In this document: positions 5,973-33,958 of the stretch, piece by piece
Layout of the letters: each line of letters starts with the position of its first letter
Numbering within the stretch: position 1 is the first letter of the stretch
Sequence record: NC_041936.1
DNA from: Escherichia phage ECD7
Length of the DNA: 64,000 nucleotides
Strand: one strand, 5' to 3'
Position numbers and translations under genes: made by a program
The notes under the pieces: model-generated
Databases searched by the model: none
What the model was told of the DNA's origin: nothing
What the model saw: the letters and a program-made list of their open reading frames with translations, nothing else

Positions 5973-6278
5973 TTAAATATCCTCCGCGATATGACGGAAC
6001 AACTCCAGATCGTTTTTATCCAGAATGAAACCGCTACAATCAATAATCCCGTTACCGTAATTATCGGTTAACAGTCGGTCCGTTGCCATGTATGCGCGTA
6101 CTTTGTTGTTAAAATTCATTACGTGTTGTGCATAGTCACAATGAATCTTTTGACGGTTCCACGCGACAATTGATTGTAGATGTATGACATTAGCCATATC
6201 ATTAATAACAACCATATCAAAAACCTCGCTTAGTGAAATGTTCTGGCATTTTATTGATACATACAGCTTGGTAGTCAC
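5973..6278 (-). CDS. hypothetical protein (dexA.1 position)
   Basis: 101-aa ORF; its 5' region is part of a local direct repeat. Confidence 0.4.
   Translation of the reverse strand: MTTKLYVSIKCQNISLSEVFDMVVINDMANVIHLQSIVAWNRQKIHCDYAQHVMNFNNKVRAYMATDRLLTDNYGNGIIDCSGFILDKNDLELFRHIAEDI
6190..6269. repeat. direct repeat copy 1 (gene end/start junction module)
   Basis: ccatatcaaaaacctcgcttagtgaaatgttctggcattttattgatacatacagctt, repeated imperfectly at 6387-6447. Confidence 0.7.
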
Positions 6279-6386
6279 GAGATTTTTTTTGACGAATTAA
6301 GAGCTACAGCCAAAAAATCCTGTAACTGTTTGTTTGTCATTTTTGGCTTACACCGCGTATCTAAACTCTTCGTTCTTCTGGCTTCA

Positions 6387-6447
6387 TTAGCCATATCAAA
6401 ACCCTCGCTTAGTGAAATATTCGATCATTTTATTGATACATTCAGCT
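6387..6447. repeat. direct repeat copy 2
   Basis: ccatatcaaaaccctcgcttagtgaaatattcgatcattttattgatacattcagctt. Confidence 0.7.
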
Positions 6448-11230: not shown

Positions 11231-11237
11231 AAGATCC

Positions 11238-11801
11238 TCACTGTATATTTTTACTTCTCTGCTTTCCTATCCAGATCCGTCTAACTGTTTCCGCATTAAC
11301 ATCATATATTTTTGCGATCTTTGCCGCAGATCCGGTTCCTTTTAGAGTTTTGATTTCTTCAATCTGATCTTTGGTTAATTTAGCCCAATGGTGTGCATCA
11401 CCATAACACGAACTCAGACCGTGTGTCAATGCATGAATCTGATTTTCTGATTGTGTAACCCATTCAAGATTATATAGGTCATGGTTTCTTTTGTTTCCAT
11501 CGATATGATTAACAAACGGCAAATTGTTTACGTTTGGTATAAACGCTTCTGCTTTTGCTCTGTGTATGTATATCGATAGAGATTTAACCCTAGACCCTGA
11601 ACTAGTTTTATTACCGTAAGGATCTCTGATTCTTGCTACGGCGTATCCACCGCTTCTTCCGGCTACAGATTCTCTATAAATCTTTCCTGTTTTCTTGTTT
11701 CTAATGCGTCCATATGAGCTAACCTCGTAGCCTGGCATTTCGACGCCCATATAAACAAGGTCTTTCCATTCTTCTGGATGTTCATCACAATACCGTTTCA
11801 T
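11238..11801 (-). CDS. free-standing HNH homing endonuclease (AP2/NUMOD-like N-terminus, C-terminal HTH)
   Basis: HIDGNKRNHDLYNLEWVTQSEN HNH motif; inserted between 61 and 56. Confidence 0.8.
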   Translation of the reverse strand: MKRYCDEHPEEWKDLVYMGVEMPGYEVSSYGRIRNKKTGKIYRESVAGRSGGYAVARIRDPYGNKTSSGSRVKSLSIYIHRAKAEAFIPNVNNLPFVNHIDGNKRNHDLYNLEWVTQSENQIHALTHGLSSCYGDAHHWAKLTKDQIEEIKTLKGTGSAAKIAKIYDVNAETVRRIWIGKQRSKNIQ

Positions 11802-11816
11802 GATGTTATTAACCTC

Positions 11817-16548: not shown

Positions 16549-18025
16549 TTAAATGTCAAACAGGTCCGTAAGCGATGCCACCTTTTCATATTGCAGCTTT
16601 GCAGCCGTGGTAATGTTCTCCAGTGGTTTGACGAAAGTCTTATTAAACAACAAAGGCCAGTCTAACCACTTCAACACTTCTGATTCAATTTCTGGCGGAA
16701 TACGAGTACCAGACAACCAACCAAAACAGATTTCTCCAAACGGATTTCGATCTTTAAGCGGTACAATCATAACCTTCTCGCCTTCACGAATCGGATCTAG
16801 TCCGAATTTTCGAGCATTACGATTATAACACAATACACTCTTAACCGCATACGGACAACCCTTAATCGGATACCCGTTTGAATCGCTGTATTTCTGTAGG
16901 TTGTTTGCAGATGATACCGCAGCAACCTCAAGATAATCAAGTTTTCTAAACTCTTGCTCAAAAATACCGTAGTATTCCTGTAGCGATTCTTCCCCTTCCT
17001 GCAACATACGGCGAATACATTCTTTCAGTGATTTCTGACATGCTTTAGGGGTGGAGCTACGTTGCGTTTCCAAGCCCATGATTTTTAGCTTAGGTTCAGC
17101 AAAGCGCGTTCCTTCCATATCCCAAACATTAAGAGCATAACGCTTTTTACCAGTCCAGAATCCACCGATACCCGCAGATTTCAACGGAGGACCAGCAATT
17201 GCCTCACGGTCCATAAACATCAAGTGCTCATAGTTATTCATGTACTCGCATAACTCGCGATATCCCTTGTCGATAATAGGTTCCATTCGATGTTTACCGA
17301 AATTATCAAGGAAGTCAACAAGTTTTTCGGTATCGTCGAAACGGTCTTCCCCGCCAACCTTATCAACAACATTGTTAACCAGCACATAAACGGAGTCAGT
17401 ATCACAATAACGAACATATGCAAAATCAGTTGTTCCGCAAAGCTCGTTTAAGTATTCGTTAATCTTACGCTCAATCCACTGAATTGCAAGCTGACCAAAC
17501 AGTGTGATCGCACTAGCGTTACGGAGATCATAAAAACGGAATTTAGGATTCCCCAACGCACCATAAAGGGAGTTGATCAAAACTTTACGAGAAAGCTGGT
17601 TTGTATTGCACAAGATCGACTCGTCTTTACATTCTTCCAGCAATTTCTCTAAGGCATCTTTACTTAATTCAGAAAGCATCGATTTAAACGCTTCGTCAAA
17701 GTCGTGACGCACTTCAACGCTATAGCTAATGGTTCCCCCATAAACATGATTTTCATCGTGTAGAATCGCTTTACATAGTTCAGCATTGCGATCACATGCC
17801 AGCATCATATTTTTGTACTGCTTACGCTGATCAAATACCTTTTTAATCTCAATAGGTACGATACCATGAATATCTTTTCGATACATCCACCCGTTAGGCG
17901 AGCAAGAATACTCATCACTCGGACGTGGTGCAGTTTTATTGATATATTCGTGCATCGGTGCAGCATCAAAAGATCCAGCGATTGTTTCAGGCGAAATATT
18001 AACCTGACGGATGATTGATGGATAC
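16549..18025 (-). CDS. 43: DNA polymerase gp43, exon 2 (motif A YPS onward; palm/thumb)
   Basis: Frame open from 18025 (YPSIIRQVNISPET...); LINSLYGALGN, YCDTDS, KKRY motifs; stop at 16549-16551. Confidence 0.9.
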
Positions 18026-18165
18026 CATTATGTTCAGCGCGGTTCGCTACTCCCGCGCCCGTTCTCTTGCGAACTGCTACATGTCACCATGTAGATCAGA
18101 CTATATCACATTCTCATAGAGAATCCTGCCATTTCGAATCGCTTGATTCTACTCTACTCGGTTCG

Positions 18166-18990
18166 TTACCCTTTCGATAGTCGTTGAACAACTGCATCTT
18201 TAAGCTCATTTTGATCAAACGGTGTTCTCTTACAGTACCCGCTATAATTCTTGGCAAAAGGTTTCTTCTTACCAAAGATCTCTTTTCCTGAATTATGTGC
18301 TTCAACAAGAAAATTCACCATTTCATCAAATGTGAAACTTGTAAATTTAGCATAAGTTTCATTACGTTTTGACATTATTTTACTCATAACTTCCGGTCGT
18401 TTAGACGCTGAATTTTCGCGCTTCTCGCCAGCATTAAATGATACTAACTCACCGGAAACATATCTAGGATCATCACAACTAACTCTAAACCGATTTCCTT
18501 CCTTATCCTTAACGATAACAGTATTCTTTAGCTTTTCTGCCATAGAATCAAGACCTTTTCGTATAGTGTCCTCATCAGCCCCGAAATATTTCTTTCCGCT
18601 CATATCGGTTCTGGCTTTTCCGGTCTTGTTTTCGGATATTTTCAGTCTAACTTCCTCTCGCTTGGCTGGGTTATTGTCTCCAGCGAATGCATCTTTGGTT
18701 AACGCCTTCACTTTATCGTCATAAGATCCTCTAGAGATGAAAGCATATGCTCTCTTGCATTCACCGTTATTGAATATTAAGCACAATAACCGATGCGCCT
18801 CGACGTGGTCTTCAAACTTAAGCCTAACAAGATTCCATTTATCTAACCGATATTCAGGGAACATTGACTTCGGGCATATATGATGCACCTCGGAATATTC
18901 TTCACCCTGATACGGATTAGACACCAGTTTAATGTAGTCGTTTAATGCTTCCTCGTTATGTATTTCGTACTTTCTTAAAATGTCTTTCAT
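18166..18990 (-). CDS. intron-encoded HNH homing endonuclease
   Basis: HNH motif EVHHICPKSMFPEYRLDKWNLVRL...HVEAH; ATG at 18988-18990 preceded by GGAGG. Confidence 0.8.
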   Translation of the reverse strand: MKDILRKYEIHNEEALNDYIKLVSNPYQGEEYSEVHHICPKSMFPEYRLDKWNLVRLKFEDHVEAHRLLCLIFNNGECKRAYAFISRGSYDDKVKALTKDAFAGDNNPAKREEVRLKISENKTGKARTDMSGKKYFGADEDTIRKGLDSMAEKLKNTVIVKDKEGNRFRVSCDDPRYVSGELVSFNAGEKRENSASKRPEVMSKIMSKRNETYAKFTSFTFDEMVNFLVEAHNSGKEIFGKKKPFAKNYSGYCKRTPFDQNELKDAVVQRLSKG

Positions 18991-19035
18991 CTCGCGCCTC
19001 CAATGTATATCAATATTTATATACATTATAAGACA
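18991..19035 (-). promoter_or_regulatory. T4-type late promoter (TATAAATA) and RBS for the intron endonuclease
   Basis: Minus strand TATAAATA (plus 19024-19031) about 33 nt upstream of the HEG ATG. Confidence 0.5.
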
Positions 19036-19139
19036 CGTTAGCTCAAAATGCAACTGCTGCTGATTGTCTCCTTAGAGATTTCCCAGCAATTAAGCAGGTT
19101 ATTCGATCACTGTCACCAGTGAAAGCCCCATATCAGTTT

Positions 19140-20341
19140 AGGGAAGTAAGGTCAAAGCTCATCATCCAACGATAAGCATTAGGTACTGGCTCTTTTACGA
19201 ATGCGCCAGGATAAGTCTGCTTAGGCTGTATCTTGTTCTCTGGTACTACTTTACCCTCAGCTTTCAGAGATCCGAAGATAATAGCATCCCATACTTTCAT
19301 CGGGTTATAAACATGGTTAAATTTAATCTTTGCATAGAAACATAGACTATACACCAGATCGATAAATCCACGCTTTTTATCAATCGCCAGCACACGATCA
19401 ACGTCGCCGATGTTATAATCGATGTAAAGTTGATGATTGTCATCACGCAATTTCTTTAACGGACCATCATAATCAACCTTACCGATTCCTGTCTCATATT
19501 CAGCAACATAATCTAACGCATATGTTGGTTGAGTCGTAAAGCTAAATTTCTTGTACAGGTCAATATAATCAAGGCTTTCGATCCCCATGATCGTAAATGC
19601 TTCACGCTCGTTGCCAAAATCATCCTGTGAGATTCTGGATTTAATCTTACCGCACGGGCTTAGACGGTTAGCGGTTCTACTTCCGAACTTATTACTGATA
19701 CGTTTAATGATATATGGAATATCGAATGTTTCTGTGTTCCAGCCAGTGAAACCAACGGGTCGGTTTTCCTCAAAGAATCGGATGTATTCTAACAGCAATT
19801 CATCTTCTGTGTCATAGACGTTATAAACAACGCGCTCTACAATATCAGGTCGAAGAATAGACTTGCTTGCTTCCCAGATTTCACCGTTTTTTCCTTTCAA
19901 ATCAAATACAAAGAAACGATCATGTACGGAATCATAATGCGTAATTGCATCTATAGGATATTTCGCTTCTTCTGGTTTAGGAAATTCTGGGGCAGTGACC
20001 TCAATATCAACCCATGCTACACGGATTTTATTTCGGTCATATCGAATCTCTCCTTTATACGTATCGGACAGATAGGAGATGATAAAATCATCCATCCCTA
20101 GTGCCTCTTGCCCCATCTCCCCCATCTTTTTACGCCATTTGTTGGCCTCGTTCATAGATGGGAATTTTTTAGCAATGCAAGGCTTGCCGTAGATATCTTT
20201 ATAATTCGTAACCATACCAGGCGCGGCATGATGAAATAAAGTTGGCGTATATTCAACGTAACGCTCTTGTTCTTGTCCAGCATCATCAATATAACGCTCG
20301 TAGATCTTATCACCCACTCGCTCACATGACAGAAAATACAT
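19140..20341 (-). CDS. 43: DNA polymerase gp43, exon 1 (N-terminal and 3'-5' exonuclease domains to motif A)
   Basis: ATG 20339-20341 with AAGGAG SD; ERYIDDAGQ, FDIPYI, ends FDLTSL at splice site. Confidence 0.9.
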
Positions 20342-20364
20342 AATATAAACTCCTTCACTTACGA

Positions 20365-20405
20365 AAGACACTCATTATAGGGGAATCGACTTAGTTTGTC
20401 AATAC
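20365..20405 (-). promoter_or_regulatory. sigma70-type early promoter upstream of gene 43
   Basis: Minus: TTGACA-17nt-TATAAT, with GGGG/CCCC inverted repeat flanking the -35. Confidence 0.5.
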
Positions 20406-28247: not shown

Positions 28248-28289
28248 AGTCTCTTCCTCTCTTCGTTTTCGATGCTCTCACTATATCAC

Positions 28290-28316
28290 AGAAAAATAAA
28301 AAGGGAAACCCCCTTT
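28290..28316 (-). terminator. weak intrinsic terminator-like hairpin upstream of gene 47
   Basis: Minus: AAAGGG-loop-CCCUUU followed by U-rich run. Confidence 0.35.
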
Positions 28317-28338
28317 CAGAGTCTCCCTTATAAAGCCA

Positions 28339-29378: not shown

Positions 29379-29418
29379 TTCGCACCCTCGCTATTATTTA
29401 GGAAATAACCCTTTCGGG

Positions 29419-30888
29419 CTATTCCCCATTGCCATTATACTTTCTTTGCTTAGTTATCCACACTCTAACCATCTCTACAGATTCGCCGTCAGACGGATCA
29501 AGAGTTTTTCCTTTTTTCTTCATGCGGTACTTAAATCCGTTAAATCTTGCATTCTCTTGCTCGTTAAAGTCGAACATCTTTTTAAATGATTTTCGCCCTT
29601 TACGCTCACCACATTCTAGCGGAATCATTCGGTCTGTTATTACATTGGCATTAGGTAGAAACGTTTTTAGATAATCAACCAACGCCCAATCAGGAACATA
29701 TAGATTAACATTCTCCTTGCTCTCGTTGTCTCTCAGGTTACAACGCAAACATAATTGAAATGCTGGTTCCAGATAATCAGACACATGACGCGCTTTCAAA
29801 AACTCGTTTGTCGGGAGATCACAACTATTAGCAAGACCTTTTAAAATATCAATCTCCCATCGTTGAGGGTTAAAGCTGAACATCACAGCAACATTTTTAT
29901 GATGAATGTAAGAGTTAAGACCATAAGATCCGTAAGGTATCCGCTCACCAATACCATTTGTGCACGATTCACGGTCCCGATTCACGGTATAAATGAAGTC
30001 ATCACCACATTCATTTTTAACCATATCAACAAGACGTTCAAAGGTATTGTTTGTTTCTGACTGGTGACGCGACCATCGTTCGGAGTCCGTCATAAGGATG
30101 ATGTTAACTCTATCTGTATTTTTATACTCTTTGAAATATAGTCTGGATTCTAGCGCACTCGGAACAAAATCGCAATTTGCATAGTATCGTAGATACTTCC
30201 CGCTATATGTATCAAAGAGATTTGCACATGCTATCGTAACCTTTTTAAAGTCTCCCCACGTACCGTGTTTGTTATCGTTCAAGAAAACAATTTTCGACCC
30301 ATTCTTCCGGTGTCCTTCGTTATGTTTTACCATAACGTTGATTTTCTTCTCTAATAACGCCTCATAAAGCCCTCTAAGAGAAGAATCGATCATATCAGTA
30401 CCATCCTTTGCACTTTCTATCTTTTCTTTGATAGCGGCCTTCTCAGAGTCTTTTAGAACTAAGTTCTGTAGGCATTCCGATTCGTCGGCGATTGGTTCGC
30501 AATGCTTCGTGATAAGTTCAAGATTAGACTTAAACGGATACTCATTAAATTCAACCAGTTGAGGAACTTCATCAATGTAAAGAGCATAATCACCAAACAT
30601 TTTTGAACGTTCCATATTAGATAACGCTGTATGTGTAATGAATATCACATCAGCACCATCTTTAACTGATTGCATTATCGACGCTTGCACTGTCTTAAGG
30701 CTTCTTAGTCTTGTGCTATCAATCAAGACAGCACGACCGCCCATTCTTTTAAACTTATTGTAAGATTGTTCACTTAAAACACGAGATGGCGAAGCAATAA
30801 CCGCTTTTTCTTTTGTCTCTAGGACGTGGGAAAGTATAGCATCAGTTTTCCCCGCCGCTGGCAATGCGATTAATGTTTCAATCTTCAT
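29419..30888 (-). CDS. P-loop NTPase with SF2 helicase-like N-terminal domain, unknown function
   Basis: 489 aa; Walker A LPAAGKT, motif Ia-like SPSRVLSEQ, Walker B YIDEV; no recognisable helicase domain 2. Confidence 0.55.
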   Translation of the reverse strand: MKIETLIALPAAGKTDAILSHVLETKEKAVIASPSRVLSEQSYNKFKRMGGRAVLIDSTRLRSLKTVQASIMQSVKDGADVIFITHTALSNMERSKMFGDYALYIDEVPQLVEFNEYPFKSNLELITKHCEPIADESECLQNLVLKDSEKAAIKEKIESAKDGTDMIDSSLRGLYEALLEKKINVMVKHNEGHRKNGSKIVFLNDNKHGTWGDFKKVTIACANLFDTYSGKYLRYYANCDFVPSALESRLYFKEYKNTDRVNIILMTDSERWSRHQSETNNTFERLVDMVKNECGDDFIYTVNRDRESCTNGIGERIPYGSYGLNSYIHHKNVAVMFSFNPQRWEIDILKGLANSCDLPTNEFLKARHVSDYLEPAFQLCLRCNLRDNESKENVNLYVPDWALVDYLKTFLPNANVITDRMIPLECGERKGRKSFKKMFDFNEQENARFNGFKYRMKKKGKTLDPSDGESVEMVRVWITKQRKYNGNGE

Positions 30889-31193
30889 TAGAAACCCTTA
30901 CGTCGTGCTTTCTGGCATTTCTTGATCATTTTATCAGAAATTTCGCGCTTAGGTGCAATCTCTTTCACACCGAAAGCACTAATGCCAAATTCAGAGAGAA
31001 TATATTCAACCAACAATTCACGCACACGCGCTTTACCGATATTCACGCCGTTATTTTTCAGATATGTCTGGCCTTCGACTTGCATCAGATCTAAATCTGC
31101 GTCGGTAATATTGATTTCTTCCATGCGCCCAAATCGAGAATAAACCATGTGTGCGATTGCATTGTGTACTAACATAATATATTCCTCACTCAA
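30888..31193 (-). CDS. hypothetical protein, translationally coupled to the P-loop NTPase
   Basis: 101 aa; stop overlaps the downstream ATG; basic C-terminus. Confidence 0.45.
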   Translation of the reverse strand: MSEEYIMLVHNAIAHMVYSRFGRMEEINITDADLDLMQVEGQTYLKNNGVNIGKARVRELLVEYILSEFGISAFGVKEIAPKREISDKMIKKCQKARRKGF

Positions 31194-31200
31194 GAATTAC

Positions 31201-31359
31201 TTAATGATACTTACTTTACCAGATCCATGACAATGAGCGCAACACCCATCACCACGCAATCCTGTTCCGTTACAGTGTTTACACTTCTTCAACGGTAAAG
31301 CCATTATAGCAAATAAAGCAATAATGAACACCGAAACTAAATTCTCAATAATCATAAAT
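31201..31359 (-). CDS. small membrane-anchored Cys-rich peptide (52 aa)
   Basis: MIIENLVSVFIIALF...CKHCNGTG...CCAHCHGSG; below the ORF-track length cutoff, hand-translated. Confidence 0.3.
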
Positions 31360-31614
31360 CGCCCTCAGTTCTTTATAGCCTCCAATGTGCTCGTTGTCAA
31401 TGAATATCTGGGGGTATACAAACCGGAGGCTCTTTGAGTTTAGCCTCCCCGCCAGTTCTTCAATCATATCACGGTCGGGAATAATGTCAACCCCGACCTG
31501 CTTGAATACTGGTTTAAGTGTATACGGAATACCCAGATCATCCAGTAGCTTCATTGCACTAATACAACCATAACAATGATAAGCCTCTTTCGGTATACCG
31601 TATATCTCGATCAT
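31345..31614 (-). CDS. nrdH: glutaredoxin-like protein NrdH
   Basis: 89 aa; CYGC redox motif; position near nrdG/nrdD. Confidence 0.7.
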   Translation of the reverse strand: MIEIYGIPKEAYHCYGCISAMKLLDDLGIPYTLKPVFKQVGVDIIPDRDMIEELAGRLNSKSLRFVYPQIFIDNEHIGGYKELRAIYDY

Positions 31615-32093
31615 TTCTCAGCCTTTAATCTTTCTAGTTCTTCTTCCAGTTCCTTAATGCGCTTCTCGCGTTCAATATCACGTTGGATCTTAGTGGCGAA
31701 TACTCGTTTAAACTGATTATAGTCATCAATTTTAAATACTTCCTCTTCACCGTATCGACGTACAGAAACTTCGTAGTTGTTGAAAAATTGTTCCAACATT
31801 GCATCAGTGGTCAGTTCTGCCGATACCACTTTAAAATGACGTTCTTCTGATTGCAAAAACCAGTTGTGCGCGTATTCCCGTACATCATCAACATTGCGGC
31901 AGGTGTATACCGTGCCATCAATTTCAATCGCAGAAACATAATCAACATCCGATGCATGGTGATCAAATGCGATAACTTTAAATGGACGGTCGCCTATAAA
32001 CTCTGCTATTGCATCATTTGCAACGCTAAAGTTTGCAAAATCTTCTCTCGTTTTCTTATCTTTCCACTGATAGGTCACGCCAGCAACAAACAT
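31611..32093 (-). CDS. paralog-family protein (one copy of ~90-aa repeated domain)
   Basis: ATG 32091-32093; GVTYQWKD...IEIDG...ERHFKVV domain pattern. Confidence 0.55.
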   Translation of the reverse strand: MFVAGVTYQWKDKKTREDFANFSVANDAIAEFIGDRPFKVIAFDHHASDVDYVSAIEIDGTVYTCRNVDDVREYAHNWFLQSEERHFKVVSAELTTDAMLEQFFNNYEVSVRRYGEEEVFKIDDYNQFKRVFATKIQRDIEREKRIKELEEELERLKAEK

Positions 32094-32094
32094 A

Positions 32095-32919
32095 TTACCA
32101 TCCTCGCTCTTTACCAATCAAAAATTCAACTTCACGACGTTTAATGTCTTCTTGAAGGTCTTTAATCTTCTGTCGATCTTGCATGATTTCATCCATCTTG
32201 TCAAGTGCCGCAATGAAATCATCGAAACGTTCAAAGGTTTTACCTTCATTTGCTTCGCCAAATTTAACCATTGTCAGGCCGTAACGACTACTAAACAGAC
32301 GTTTCAACTGTCCAACGATCTTAGAATCAGTGGTTATAACTTCCAATTCTTCTACTTCACGAAAGAATTTTCTATCAGAATCAATAAACCAGCTAGTTCC
32401 TTTATGGTCTCTATCTTCGGTTGCGCTCATTAGAGTATGGTCTTTACCATCAATTTCAATTACATCAATTTGCCCACATGGACTAACATTTTTAACAGTA
32501 AAAGGTCTATAATTTATTGCTCGTGCAATAACATAATTAAGGTTAGATACGTTTTCAGCATAATGGCAGAAGTCGGTCATAGCATTCGCATCTTTCCAAG
32601 TATAAGTTTTACCAACTTCCCATTTCTGGGGAACTTCTTCAACTTCACGAAAGAATTTTCTATCGAATGGACTAAAGAAATATGTTGCCGTCCAAATGTC
32701 TTTTCCTGTAGCAGTTTTCGCCGTATGATAAACACCGTCTAGCTCTATTGCATCAATCCAACCGTTACCCTCGATCTCGATGATGGTAAATGGCTTGTCA
32801 CCAATAGCTGCACTGATATCGCTGTTAAGTGGAGAAAGAACACCTTCTCCGTTAGTAATAAACTCAGTTTTAGCGTTTTCGTCTTTCCAGGTGTAAGTTT
32901 TACCAATTTCCCATTTCAT
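32095..32919 (-). CDS. paralog-family protein (two tandem copies of the domain)
   Basis: WEIGKTYTWKD...IELDGVYHT...DRKFFREVEE repeated twice within 274 aa. Confidence 0.6.
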   Translation of the reverse strand: MKWEIGKTYTWKDENAKTEFITNGEGVLSPLNSDISAAIGDKPFTIIEIEGNGWIDAIELDGVYHTAKTATGKDIWTATYFFSPFDRKFFREVEEVPQKWEVGKTYTWKDANAMTDFCHYAENVSNLNYVIARAINYRPFTVKNVSPCGQIDVIEIDGKDHTLMSATEDRDHKGTSWFIDSDRKFFREVEELEVITTDSKIVGQLKRLFSSRYGLTMVKFGEANEGKTFERFDDFIAALDKMDEIMQDRQKIKDLQEDIKRREVEFLIGKERGW

Positions 32920-32931
32920 AATATATTCCCC

Positions 32932-33417
32932 TTAACCGATTTTATCAAGTTCGTTTAATGCTTTCTCTGCTTCCTGTATAGCTTGCACCCTTTCCGGCAT
33001 TTTGTCAAGAAAATCTTTCAACTCTTCAAAACTGGAGATATGACGCAAGGCGTTAGCACCGATAGCCGCATGTGATTTACATTCAAAGCGGATTTTATAA
33101 TTATCCATCGCCAACTTGAGAAGATCTATTAGATCATATTCATGACCAGGCAATAAAACTTCTTTGAAGCACGCTCGGTCGCCATCGGAAAACCATATAT
33201 TATCACCAACATCGATAGAACTAATATAATCCCCTTCGTGATTATAGATTGAACGTACATTACCCCAACGGTCTACAGTAGCGACAGTAAATGGTTTATC
33301 TAGATATGTAAACACACCATCAATATTAGGTTTTTGTTTGTAACGCCAACAATCACGCAAAATGCGCTTTTCGTCCTCACCAACCAACTTATATGTCTTC
33401 CCTTCTTCCCATTTCAT
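32932..33417 (-). CDS. paralog-family protein
   Basis: MKWEEGKTYK...; probable ATG at 33415-33417. Confidence 0.55.
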   Translation of the reverse strand: MKWEEGKTYKLVGEDEKRILRDCWRYKQKPNIDGVFTYLDKPFTVATVDRWGNVRSIYNHEGDYISSIDVGDNIWFSDGDRACFKEVLLPGHEYDLIDLLKLAMDNYKIRFECKSHAAIGANALRHISSFEELKDFLDKMPERVQAIQEAEKALNELDKIG

Positions 33418-33456
33418 AATATCATCTCTCATTTTTGATACGTGATTCTAATTGGA

Positions 33457-33948
33457 TCATACGGTCGCGCGTTTGCTTGTATTCGCGGATAGCACCGATT
33501 CGGCTAGGCATACCATCCAGTACGCTCTTAATCCTTCTAGGGTAGTGATTTTAGCAATGCTATTATGTAACCCCATCTTATCGGTCAACTGAATGTCGTA
33601 GGCTTCCATAAGCAGACCCAGACGTTCTAAAGTTAGGTCTTCTTCTTTTTCTTCCGATTCTGGAATCTTAGGTTCAATAGTAACTTCGGTAAAGAAACGA
33701 CGCTCACCCGACCAAAACCACACGCCGGAACAACCAATAGGGGATTCTTTTAACGTCATAGAGTCGTAACCACTGCCGATAATAGTAATTTCTCTAACAT
33801 CACCATCATCGTCAAGGTCTTCTACCCTAAACGGGCGACCAGCCAACAAGTCAACAATACATCTGTTAATAGACGACGAAAATTTAGTCAGTTCGGCTTT
33901 CGACGCTTCGCATTCAATCTTGTAAGTTTTACCAACTTCCCATTCCAT
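33457..33948 (-). CDS. paralog-family protein
   Basis: MEWEVGKTYK... with GAGGTG SD; ATG 33946-33948. Confidence 0.55.
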   Translation of the reverse strand: MEWEVGKTYKIECEASKAELTKFSSSINRCIVDLLAGRPFRVEDLDDDGDVREITIIGSGYDSMTLKESPIGCSGVWFWSGERRFFTEVTIEPKIPESEEKEEDLTLERLGLLMEAYDIQLTDKMGLHNSIAKITTLEGLRAYWMVCLAESVLSANTSKRATV

Positions 33949-33958
33949 AATAATCACC

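Follow-up and report, generated by a model that had tools for sequence, protein, structure and literature searches.

We analyzed a 64,000-nucleotide stretch of the genome of Escherichia phage ECD7 (NC_041936.1; hereafter the window), concentrating on two adjacent minus-strand genes that lie upstream of gene 55. The initial annotation, made from the letters of the sequence, had described them as a two-gene module consisting of a 101-residue basic protein and a 489-residue NTPase of the superfamily 2 (SF2) helicase type. Our results identify the small protein as a homolog of T4 gp55.2 and, for the large one, predict a complete SF2 helicase without a T4 counterpart. T4 serves as the reference phage of this family; gp41, Dda, and UvsW are its three textbook helicases.

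The window derives from an RB49-like phage (Krischvirus), and the two genes lie in the early, or replication, arm of this "pseudo-T-even" T4-type phage. Its first 24 kb are collinear with RB49, from rIIA onward, and the segment 29350–31420 shares 99.3–99.6% nucleotide identity with Escherichia phages W115, RB49, and JSE as well as about 50 other Krischvirus genomes. On the minus strand, the genes follow the order nrdH, a 52-codon open reading frame (ORF), the 55.2 gene, the 489-codon helicase gene, gene 55, a-gt.5, a-gt.4, and gene 47, and the whole region from nrdH to gene 47 is collinear across the T4-like loci that we compared. Both ORFs were found at the coordinates first given for them, with the ATG of the large gene sharing one base with the stop codon of the small gene (TAATG). 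This overlap is not distinctive, because the homologous RB49 stretch has 23 adjacent gene pairs, of which 10 overlap as well.

The small gene encodes a homolog of T4 gp55.2

The maximal small ORF (30888–31193, minus strand) starts with a TTG at 31193 and yields the 101 residues reported initially. The start is most likely the ATG at 31175, giving 95 residues, because this codon is preceded by a GAGGAA ribosome-binding site, because the RB49 counterpart RB49p045 is annotated as "gp55.2" with the corresponding length of 288 nt, and because the homology to both Pfam DUF7570 and T4 gp55.2 begins only past this position. The protein is mildly basic with either start (pI 8.7 for 101 residues and 9.4 for 95 residues), as had been stated.

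Sequence searches agreed on the identity of the product. The protein matched Pfam DUF7570 over profile positions 1–94 of 94 (E = 1.4e-28; 99.2 bits against a gathering cut-off of 27), and BLASTP aligned it with T4 ORF 55.2 at 42% identity over 96 columns, the full length of the protein (E = 7e-20). A tblastn search likewise matched the T4 record Y00122 as "ORF 55.2", and the records of RB49, RB43, and PX29 annotate the counterpart as gp55.2. The gene also occupies the position that it has in T4, with nrdH on its upstream side and gene 55 on its downstream side, all on the same strand. An AlphaFold2 (AF2) model of the protein, with a mean predicted local distance difference test score (pLDDT) of 86.5, showed a helical bundle followed by a basic C-terminal helix. 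NCBIfam contained no match for either the small or the large protein.

Compared with T4 gp55.2, the ECD7 protein is of similar size, has a basic C-terminal tail, and serves a phage of the same host species; it differs in being 95 rather than 108 residues long and in ending ~8 residues short of the T4 C terminus. The loci diverge just beyond the gene, where 55.2 is followed by the helicase gene in ECD7 and by gene 55.1 in T4. Together, these data make it nearly certain that the small protein is the counterpart of T4 gp55.2. The view that neither gene resembles a T4 gene at this position therefore holds for the large gene but not for the small one, which has a confident match to a characterized T4 protein and gains its correct name, that of a known inhibitor of host topoisomerase I in T4.

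T4 gp55.2 inhibits Escherichia coli topoisomerase I and binds both double- and single-stranded DNA; its overexpression is toxic, and extra topA suppresses the toxicity (Mattenberger et al. 2015, PMC4396842). By analogy, the ECD7 homolog may inhibit topoisomerase I as well.

The large gene encodes a predicted SF2 helicase with two RecA-like lobes

The three segments on which the SF2-like assignment had been based, LPAAGKT (residues 9–15), SPSRVLSEQ (residues 33–41), and YIDEV (residues 104–108), were all present and conserved in homologs. The 489-residue protein matched Pfam DEAD over residues 11–130 (E = 3.4e-6), narrowly above the gathering cut-off (27.3 against 26 bits), and its structural matches, described below, were SF2 helicases, so that this part of the initial annotation stands. 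Among the PHROGs, it matched phrog_2467, a family of unknown function. A sequence search of the PDB with the protein returned no match, and comparison of the family profile with the PDB gave only a chance match to IclR (E = 0.49).

Conservation extends well beyond the segments covered by Pfam (Table 1). Residues Pro-10, Gly-13, Lys-14, Thr-15, Asp-106, and Glu-107 were invariant in the alignment of 39 homologs (A1), and Gly-13, Lys-14, Asp-106, Glu-107, Gly-323, Asn-325, Gln-378, Arg-382, and Arg-386 remained so even at 17–27% identity. The last three belong to a motif VI-like segment with the consensus FQLCxRxNxR, in which the second arginine lies one residue farther than in QxxGRxxR. We tentatively labeled the TIACANL segment as motif III from its position. 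This pattern of invariant residues is that of an active ATPase motor, an activity that we predict from sequence.

Table 1. Features of the 55.2–helicase locus in the ECD7 window.
Feature	Position	Strand	Basis
489-aa predicted SF2 helicase gene (phrog_2467), uncharacterized	29419..30888	-	ORF
TAATG, 55.2 stop and helicase start sharing one base	30886..30890	-	sequence
Motif I / Walker A, residues 8–15, ALPAAGKT	30844..30867	-	translation; G13 and K14 invariant in 50 relatives (17–42% identity)
Motif Ia-like, residues 31–42, IASPSRVLSEQS	30763..30798	-	S33, L38, and S42 invariant in the 39-sequence alignment
Motif II / Walker B, residues 103–109, LYIDEVP	30562..30582	-	D106 and E107 invariant; P109 nearly so
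Predicted ~105-aa insertion in lobe 1, residues ~110–215, preceded by motif II and followed by the motif III-like segment	30244..30561	-	AF2 model: strand 112–119, helices 147–162 and 166–179, strands 186–205
Motif III-like, residues 218–224, TIACANL (family consensus IAxAN)	30217..30237	-	nearly invariant at T218 and N223 and, in distant relatives, at A222
Predicted second RecA-like lobe, residues ~255–420, with FIYTxN, HGLN, and FSFNP motifs and a VPD strand	29629..30126	-	
Motif VI-like, residues 374–386, EPAFQLCLRCNLR, candidate arginine fingers	29731..29769	-	Q378, R382, and R386 invariant in alignments A1, A4, and A5 and in the ~800-aa long forms (A6)
Basic C-terminal three-helix domain, residues 430–489, pI 10.1	29422..29601	-	model helices 435–438, 443–458, and 468–486; E445 and W477 invariant in the 39-sequence alignment
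95-aa gp55.2 homolog gene (DUF7570)	30888..31175	-	ORF, ribosome-binding site and ATG, RB49 annotation, Pfam, BLASTP, AF2
Candidate sigma-70-type promoter-like site, extended -10 (TTGACA-16-TATGAT, 11/12), inside nrdH	31463..31490	-	consensus scan; could be an early promoter that serves the 52-aa ORF, 55.2, and the helicase gene
Short hairpin CCCGAAAGGG and then TTATTT, right after the helicase stop and before gene 55	29403..29418	-	sequence; weak, not called by terminator scan

An AF2 model of the protein, built from the 39 homologs, reached a pLDDT of 88.1 and a predicted template modeling score (pTM) of 0.77. Lobe 1 is formed by residues 1 to ~110 and ~215–250 and is interrupted by the insertion; a second β-α lobe spans residues ~255–420, and three basic helices close the chain. 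Residues 43–102 fold into ordinary lobe-1 elements, with nothing inserted between motifs Ia and II. The C-terminal helical domain is a candidate DNA-binding element, which probably holds nucleic acid.

The initial annotation had found no recognizable helicase domain 2. Sequence searches assign only residues 11–130 and find no PDB protein, which would fit a single-domain P-loop NTPase with a C-terminal half unrelated to helicases. This explanation is barely credible, as the confident AF2 model and the fold searches place a second RecA-like lobe in that half, which also carries the invariant Gln/Arg/Arg of the motif VI-like segment.

Relation to XPD/DinG and DEAD-box helicases

Searching the model with Foldseek gave CasDinG, XPD, and Staphylococcus aureus DinG as the top matches (E-values from 8e-10 to 1e-8; TM-scores of 0.42–0.50). 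XPD/DinG proteins ranked first in two fold searches, UvsW ranked lower in the structural search, and both lobes aligned to SF2 helicases. The shared layout consists of two RecA-like lobes and an accessory domain in lobe 1 after motif II, as in XPD, Rad3, DinG, and CasDinG. The insertion at residues ~110–215 sits where XPD/DinG have the Arch domain and may correspond to it in the model.

The ECD7 protein differs from these enzymes in its length (489 residues compared with 550–900), in the lack of the family-defining 4Fe-4S domain, which has four conserved cysteines and is inserted in lobe 1 between motifs Ia and II, and in its additional basic C-terminal helical domain. Cys-130 and Cys-380 are the only invariant cysteines among the 39 sequences, and the family has no conserved cysteine quartet. 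No match to Pfam DEAD_2 or Helicase_C_2 was obtained in the 489-residue protein at E ≤ 1. Membership in XPD/DinG proper was rejected on the basis of the missing Fe-S cysteines and domain and the negative profile comparison with DinG described below. CasDinG and S. aureus DinG are also without a functional Fe-S cluster (supported in part by PMC3270479). With neither Fe-S cysteines nor a DinG-specific sequence signal, we leave the protein unclassified among the SF2 helicases, with a layout resembling that of XPD/DinG. Its mode of action may be that of XPD/DinG proteins, for which 5′-3′ translocation on single-stranded DNA is a family property (PMC6300356).

The sequence evidence raises another explanation, namely that the protein is DEAD-box-like and handles transcripts of the phage or the host as an RNA helicase or chaperone. 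DEAD is the sole Pfam family above its cut-off, the family profile aligns with E. coli RhlE across motifs I–II (probability 81%), and genes nearby upstream fall into PHROGs labeled as goF mRNA-metabolism modulators. Motif II, however, reads DEVP instead of DEAD, and the 7 residues that precede the P-loop region are too few to accommodate a Q motif. The full-length structural matches are led by the DNA helicases XPD and DinG, the resemblance of lobe 2 to DEAD-box domains is one common to SF2 in general, and a DNA-primase-like domain is attached to the helicase in longer relatives. We consequently regard an RNA substrate as quite improbable.

Longer relatives carry a primase-like extension

An exhaustive profile search recovered 1,328 cluster representatives at E ≤ 1e-3 and 762 at E ≤ 1e-10, many of which are ~800 residues long. 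In these long relatives, found in metagenomes and in Agrobacterium phage Atu_ph07 (L007 3908–6196, phrog_31024), the helicase part is N-terminal, homologous to the ECD7 protein throughout, and invariant at the same motif residues. Beyond it lies a conserved C-terminal extension of ~330 residues with an invariant DxD...R...D pattern, whereas the ECD7 protein stops after its short basic helical domain and has no primase domain in the same polypeptide.

The extension matched PHROG families annotated as "DNA primase", including phrog_9765 (matched by 7 of 12 members, with a best E of 1.2e-12), phrog_2135 (E = 7.6e-12), and phrog_17236, and also phrog_3228, annotated as "replicative helicase-primase". 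Pfam and PDB profile searches with the extension gave nothing significant, with the exception of one long relative (P0129) that ends in Pfam PriCT_2 (E = 4.9e-7). Judging from the DxD/D pattern, the extension would be a primase of the archaeo-eukaryotic type. No curated family describes the ~800-residue forms. The helicase-then-primase order of the long relatives (metagenomic P0063–P0189) is the reverse of the usual primase-then-helicase arrangement.

One relative lies in a bacterial contig. In a metagenome-assembled genome of Neptuniibacter sp. (NZ_JAAEQH010000199.1; L037 7828–13274), a 546-residue relative is located between a tyrosine integrase (DUF6538 and Phage_integrase) and a serine resolvase. 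The locus adjoins ordinary chromosomal genes and has the appearance of a very small mobile element that has integrated there with the helicase as its main cargo. A single-protein scan of bacterial genomes gave a match only in the source contig. The primase fusions and the integrated-element context together point to DNA replication as the process in which this family acts.

Distribution and linkage of the two genes

Both genes are conserved at 35–99% identity in hundreds of phage records. Our presence/absence survey across phage records found homologs of the helicase in 242 and homologs of gp55.2 in 1,091. The helicase carriers include Krischvirus, Aeromonas phages, RB43-like phages of Cronobacter, Enterobacter, Citrobacter, and Klebsiella, and phages of Proteus, Morganella, Serratia, and Erwinia; no Tequatrovirus was among the 242 records. 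A profile search of the T4 55.x region with filters off detected no helicase remnant, and the possibility that gene 55.1 or its surroundings represent such a remnant was rejected, as 55.1 fills the slot and is unrelated. The helicase gene does not appear to be host-derived, because no match was found in 5,426 complete E. coli genomes; plasmids gave no match either.

We examined 32 helicase-bearing T4-like loci. In 31 of them, the helicase gene was preceded by a 55.2 homolog of the same orientation, which abutted or overlapped it in 23 and was separated from it by 0.8–2 kb of other genes in 8. The remaining contig (L027) carries the helicase without 55.2. In RB43-type genomes, 55.2 and the helicase gene stay together with nrdH although gene 55 is no longer downstream. 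Outside Straboviridae, no 55.2-like ORF was found near the helicase relatives of Agrobacterium phage Atu_ph07, Pseudoalteromonas phage PH357, or the Neptuniibacter contig.

These observations bear on the proposed two-gene module. In a true functional module, gp55.2 would partner or regulate the helicase, by loading it on DNA or by coupling supercoiling to unwinding, and the TAATG overlap would enforce coexpression. The synteny, including its persistence in RB43-type genomes, is in line with this idea, and both proteins plausibly act on DNA (for gp55.2, see PMC4396842). On the other hand, T4 encodes no homolog of the helicase and its gp55.2 functions by itself (PMC4396842), homologs of 55.2 far outnumber those of the helicase, and the intervening genes in eight loci, the L027 contig, and the three more distant relatives show that either gene can be found away from the other. 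Because the nrdH–gene 47 region is collinear and overlaps are frequent in it, adjacency and overlap are the default of the genome architecture. We thus consider a functional module unlikely. The two genes form a conserved synteny and not an obligate pair; they are separate early-region genes, probably cotranscribed, that lie side by side because the region is collinear in the family.

Two additional genes separate 55.2 from the helicase gene in Aeromonas phages of the 25/31/44RR/Aes508 type (for example L004 2109–3004, Aes508; also L017–L019 and L035). The gene that overlaps the helicase start in these phages carries the PHROG label "DprA-like DNA recombination-mediator" (phrog_768), which Pfam did not confirm and which we did not use as evidence.

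The patchy distribution among Straboviridae genera could also reflect a host-takeover or counter-defense function, in which the helicase would remove or evade a host defense or nucleoid protein in the hosts of the non-T4 lineages. The gene lies in the variable early region between the nrd genes and gene 55, where T4 has the host-modulating ORFans 55.1 and 55.2 (PMC4396842), and it is dispensable for the T4 life style. A PADLOC search with the helicase, however, gave no significant match (best E = 0.0076, to an unrelated model), the position of the gene is stable across genera and not shuffled, and the primase fusions and integrative-element context of its relatives point to replication. We therefore give this explanation little weight.

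Proposed roles of gp55.2 and the helicase

The explanation that we favor, with moderate confidence for the whole, combines a gp55.2 homolog with a complete SF2 accessory helicase. The identities of both proteins are nearly certain, and the fold and motifs of the larger one are predicted from modeling and conservation. The gp55.2 homolog would coat DNA and block the relaxation of negative supercoils by host topoisomerase I, thereby tuning DNA topology for phage growth. The 489-residue protein, with intact ATP-binding and arginine-finger motifs, would be a complete helicase or translocase that uses ATP to move along and open DNA, and it may serve as a nonessential accessory in phage replication, recombination, or repair. 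The one-base overlap may couple translation of the two genes without making either protein dependent on the other.

The helicase is presumably additional to the standard set, because dda, gene 41, and gene 61 are all present in RB49 too. It is a copy of none of the T4-type enzymes gp41, Dda, and UvsW; gp41 (DnaB-like) and Dda (SF1B) belong to other superfamilies. We propose that it acts in addition to gp41 and Dda. Its DNA substrate and its connection to replication are suggested chiefly by the primase-like domain of the longer relatives, and a DNA-helicase role in replication, recombination, or repair stands about level with the rival explanations combined.

Several findings weigh against this explanation. 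The link to replication is indirect, because the T4-like form lacks the primase-like extension. The TM-scores to XPD/DinG are just 0.42–0.50, the hhalign comparison of the family profile with E. coli DinG covers 44 columns around Walker A only (probability 7%), and the generic DEAD-box protein RhlE aligns better. Because of these two profile results, the XPD-like label describes the predicted fold and not the sequence. The inhibition of topoisomerase I is carried over from T4 by homology at 42% identity, and all but one of the homolog records annotate the helicase as hypothetical.

A broader and, in our view, rather unlikely possibility is that the 489-residue protein represents an undescribed lineage of SF2 replication helicases. 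The full-length form would then be a helicase-N/primase-C initiator of phages and small integrative elements, and T4-like phages would keep a primase-less version as an extra route to start or restart replication that T4 lacks. It might act together with gp55.2, whose inhibition of topoisomerase I would keep the DNA negatively supercoiled and easier to open.

Overall, what remains of the initial annotation is an SF2-like protein that is absent from T4; the small gene is known from T4, the helicase appears complete, and the two genes do not form an obligate module. A fourth, unstudied helicase would thus be conserved at one locus in Krischvirus, Pseudotevenvirus, Aeromonas phages, and others, and we found no study of it in the literature on RB49 or Krischvirus. 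Since this helicase is conserved outside T4, much of the family would have a component of DNA metabolism that T4 cannot reveal. The wider family of ~1,300 clusters, with its many primase-like fusions, has no characterized member and no curated model for the C-terminal half; therefore, a single biochemical study would annotate many genes of phages and mobile elements. Naming these genes is of practical value as well, because RB49-like phages are used in phage therapy collections.

Expression signals and neighboring genes

The promoter-like site inside nrdH (Table 1) is treated as a candidate, because the total number of such sites found was not above the shuffled expectation. The late-promoter motif TATAAATA was absent from both strands between 26 and 34 kb. 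Early, prereplicative expression together with the neighboring genes is likely, as predicted from these signals.

The 52-residue ORF between nrdH and 55.2 (31197–31355, minus strand) encodes a protein with a hydrophobic helix at the N terminus and, after it, two CxxCxGxG repeats (CKHCNGTG and CAHCHGSG) that resemble a DnaJ-type zinc finger. It matched phrog_3931 (function unknown) and is annotated as a membrane protein in W115. Farther upstream, positions 31611–33957 of the minus strand contain four adjacent paralogs of 168, 274, 166, and 166 residues with a W-E/K-x-GKTY-x-W-KD ... FF-x-EV repeat, of which the 274-residue protein holds two copies. All four matched phrog_5347 and gave weaker matches to PHROGs that bear the name "goF mRNA metabolism modulator".

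Finally, we noted several differences from RB49 elsewhere in the window. The gap between a-gt.4 and gene 47 is 91 bases in ECD7 (28248–28338), whereas RB49 has the HNH endonuclease gene RB49p040 (555 nt) at this site, a mobile gene that ECD7 lacks. Two further insertions relative to RB49, of ~180 bp at ~6270–6390 and ~575 bp at ~11232–11806, lie near dexA-dda and gene 61. Gene 43, which encodes the DNA polymerase, is split on the minus strand (16549–20371) into ORFs of 412 residues (19133–20371) and 468 residues (16549–17955), with a 295-residue HNH homing-endonuclease ORF between them (18166–19053; phrog_12434, E = 1e-131). In RB49, gene 43 is uninterrupted and lacks the ~1.1-kb insertion found in ECD7.

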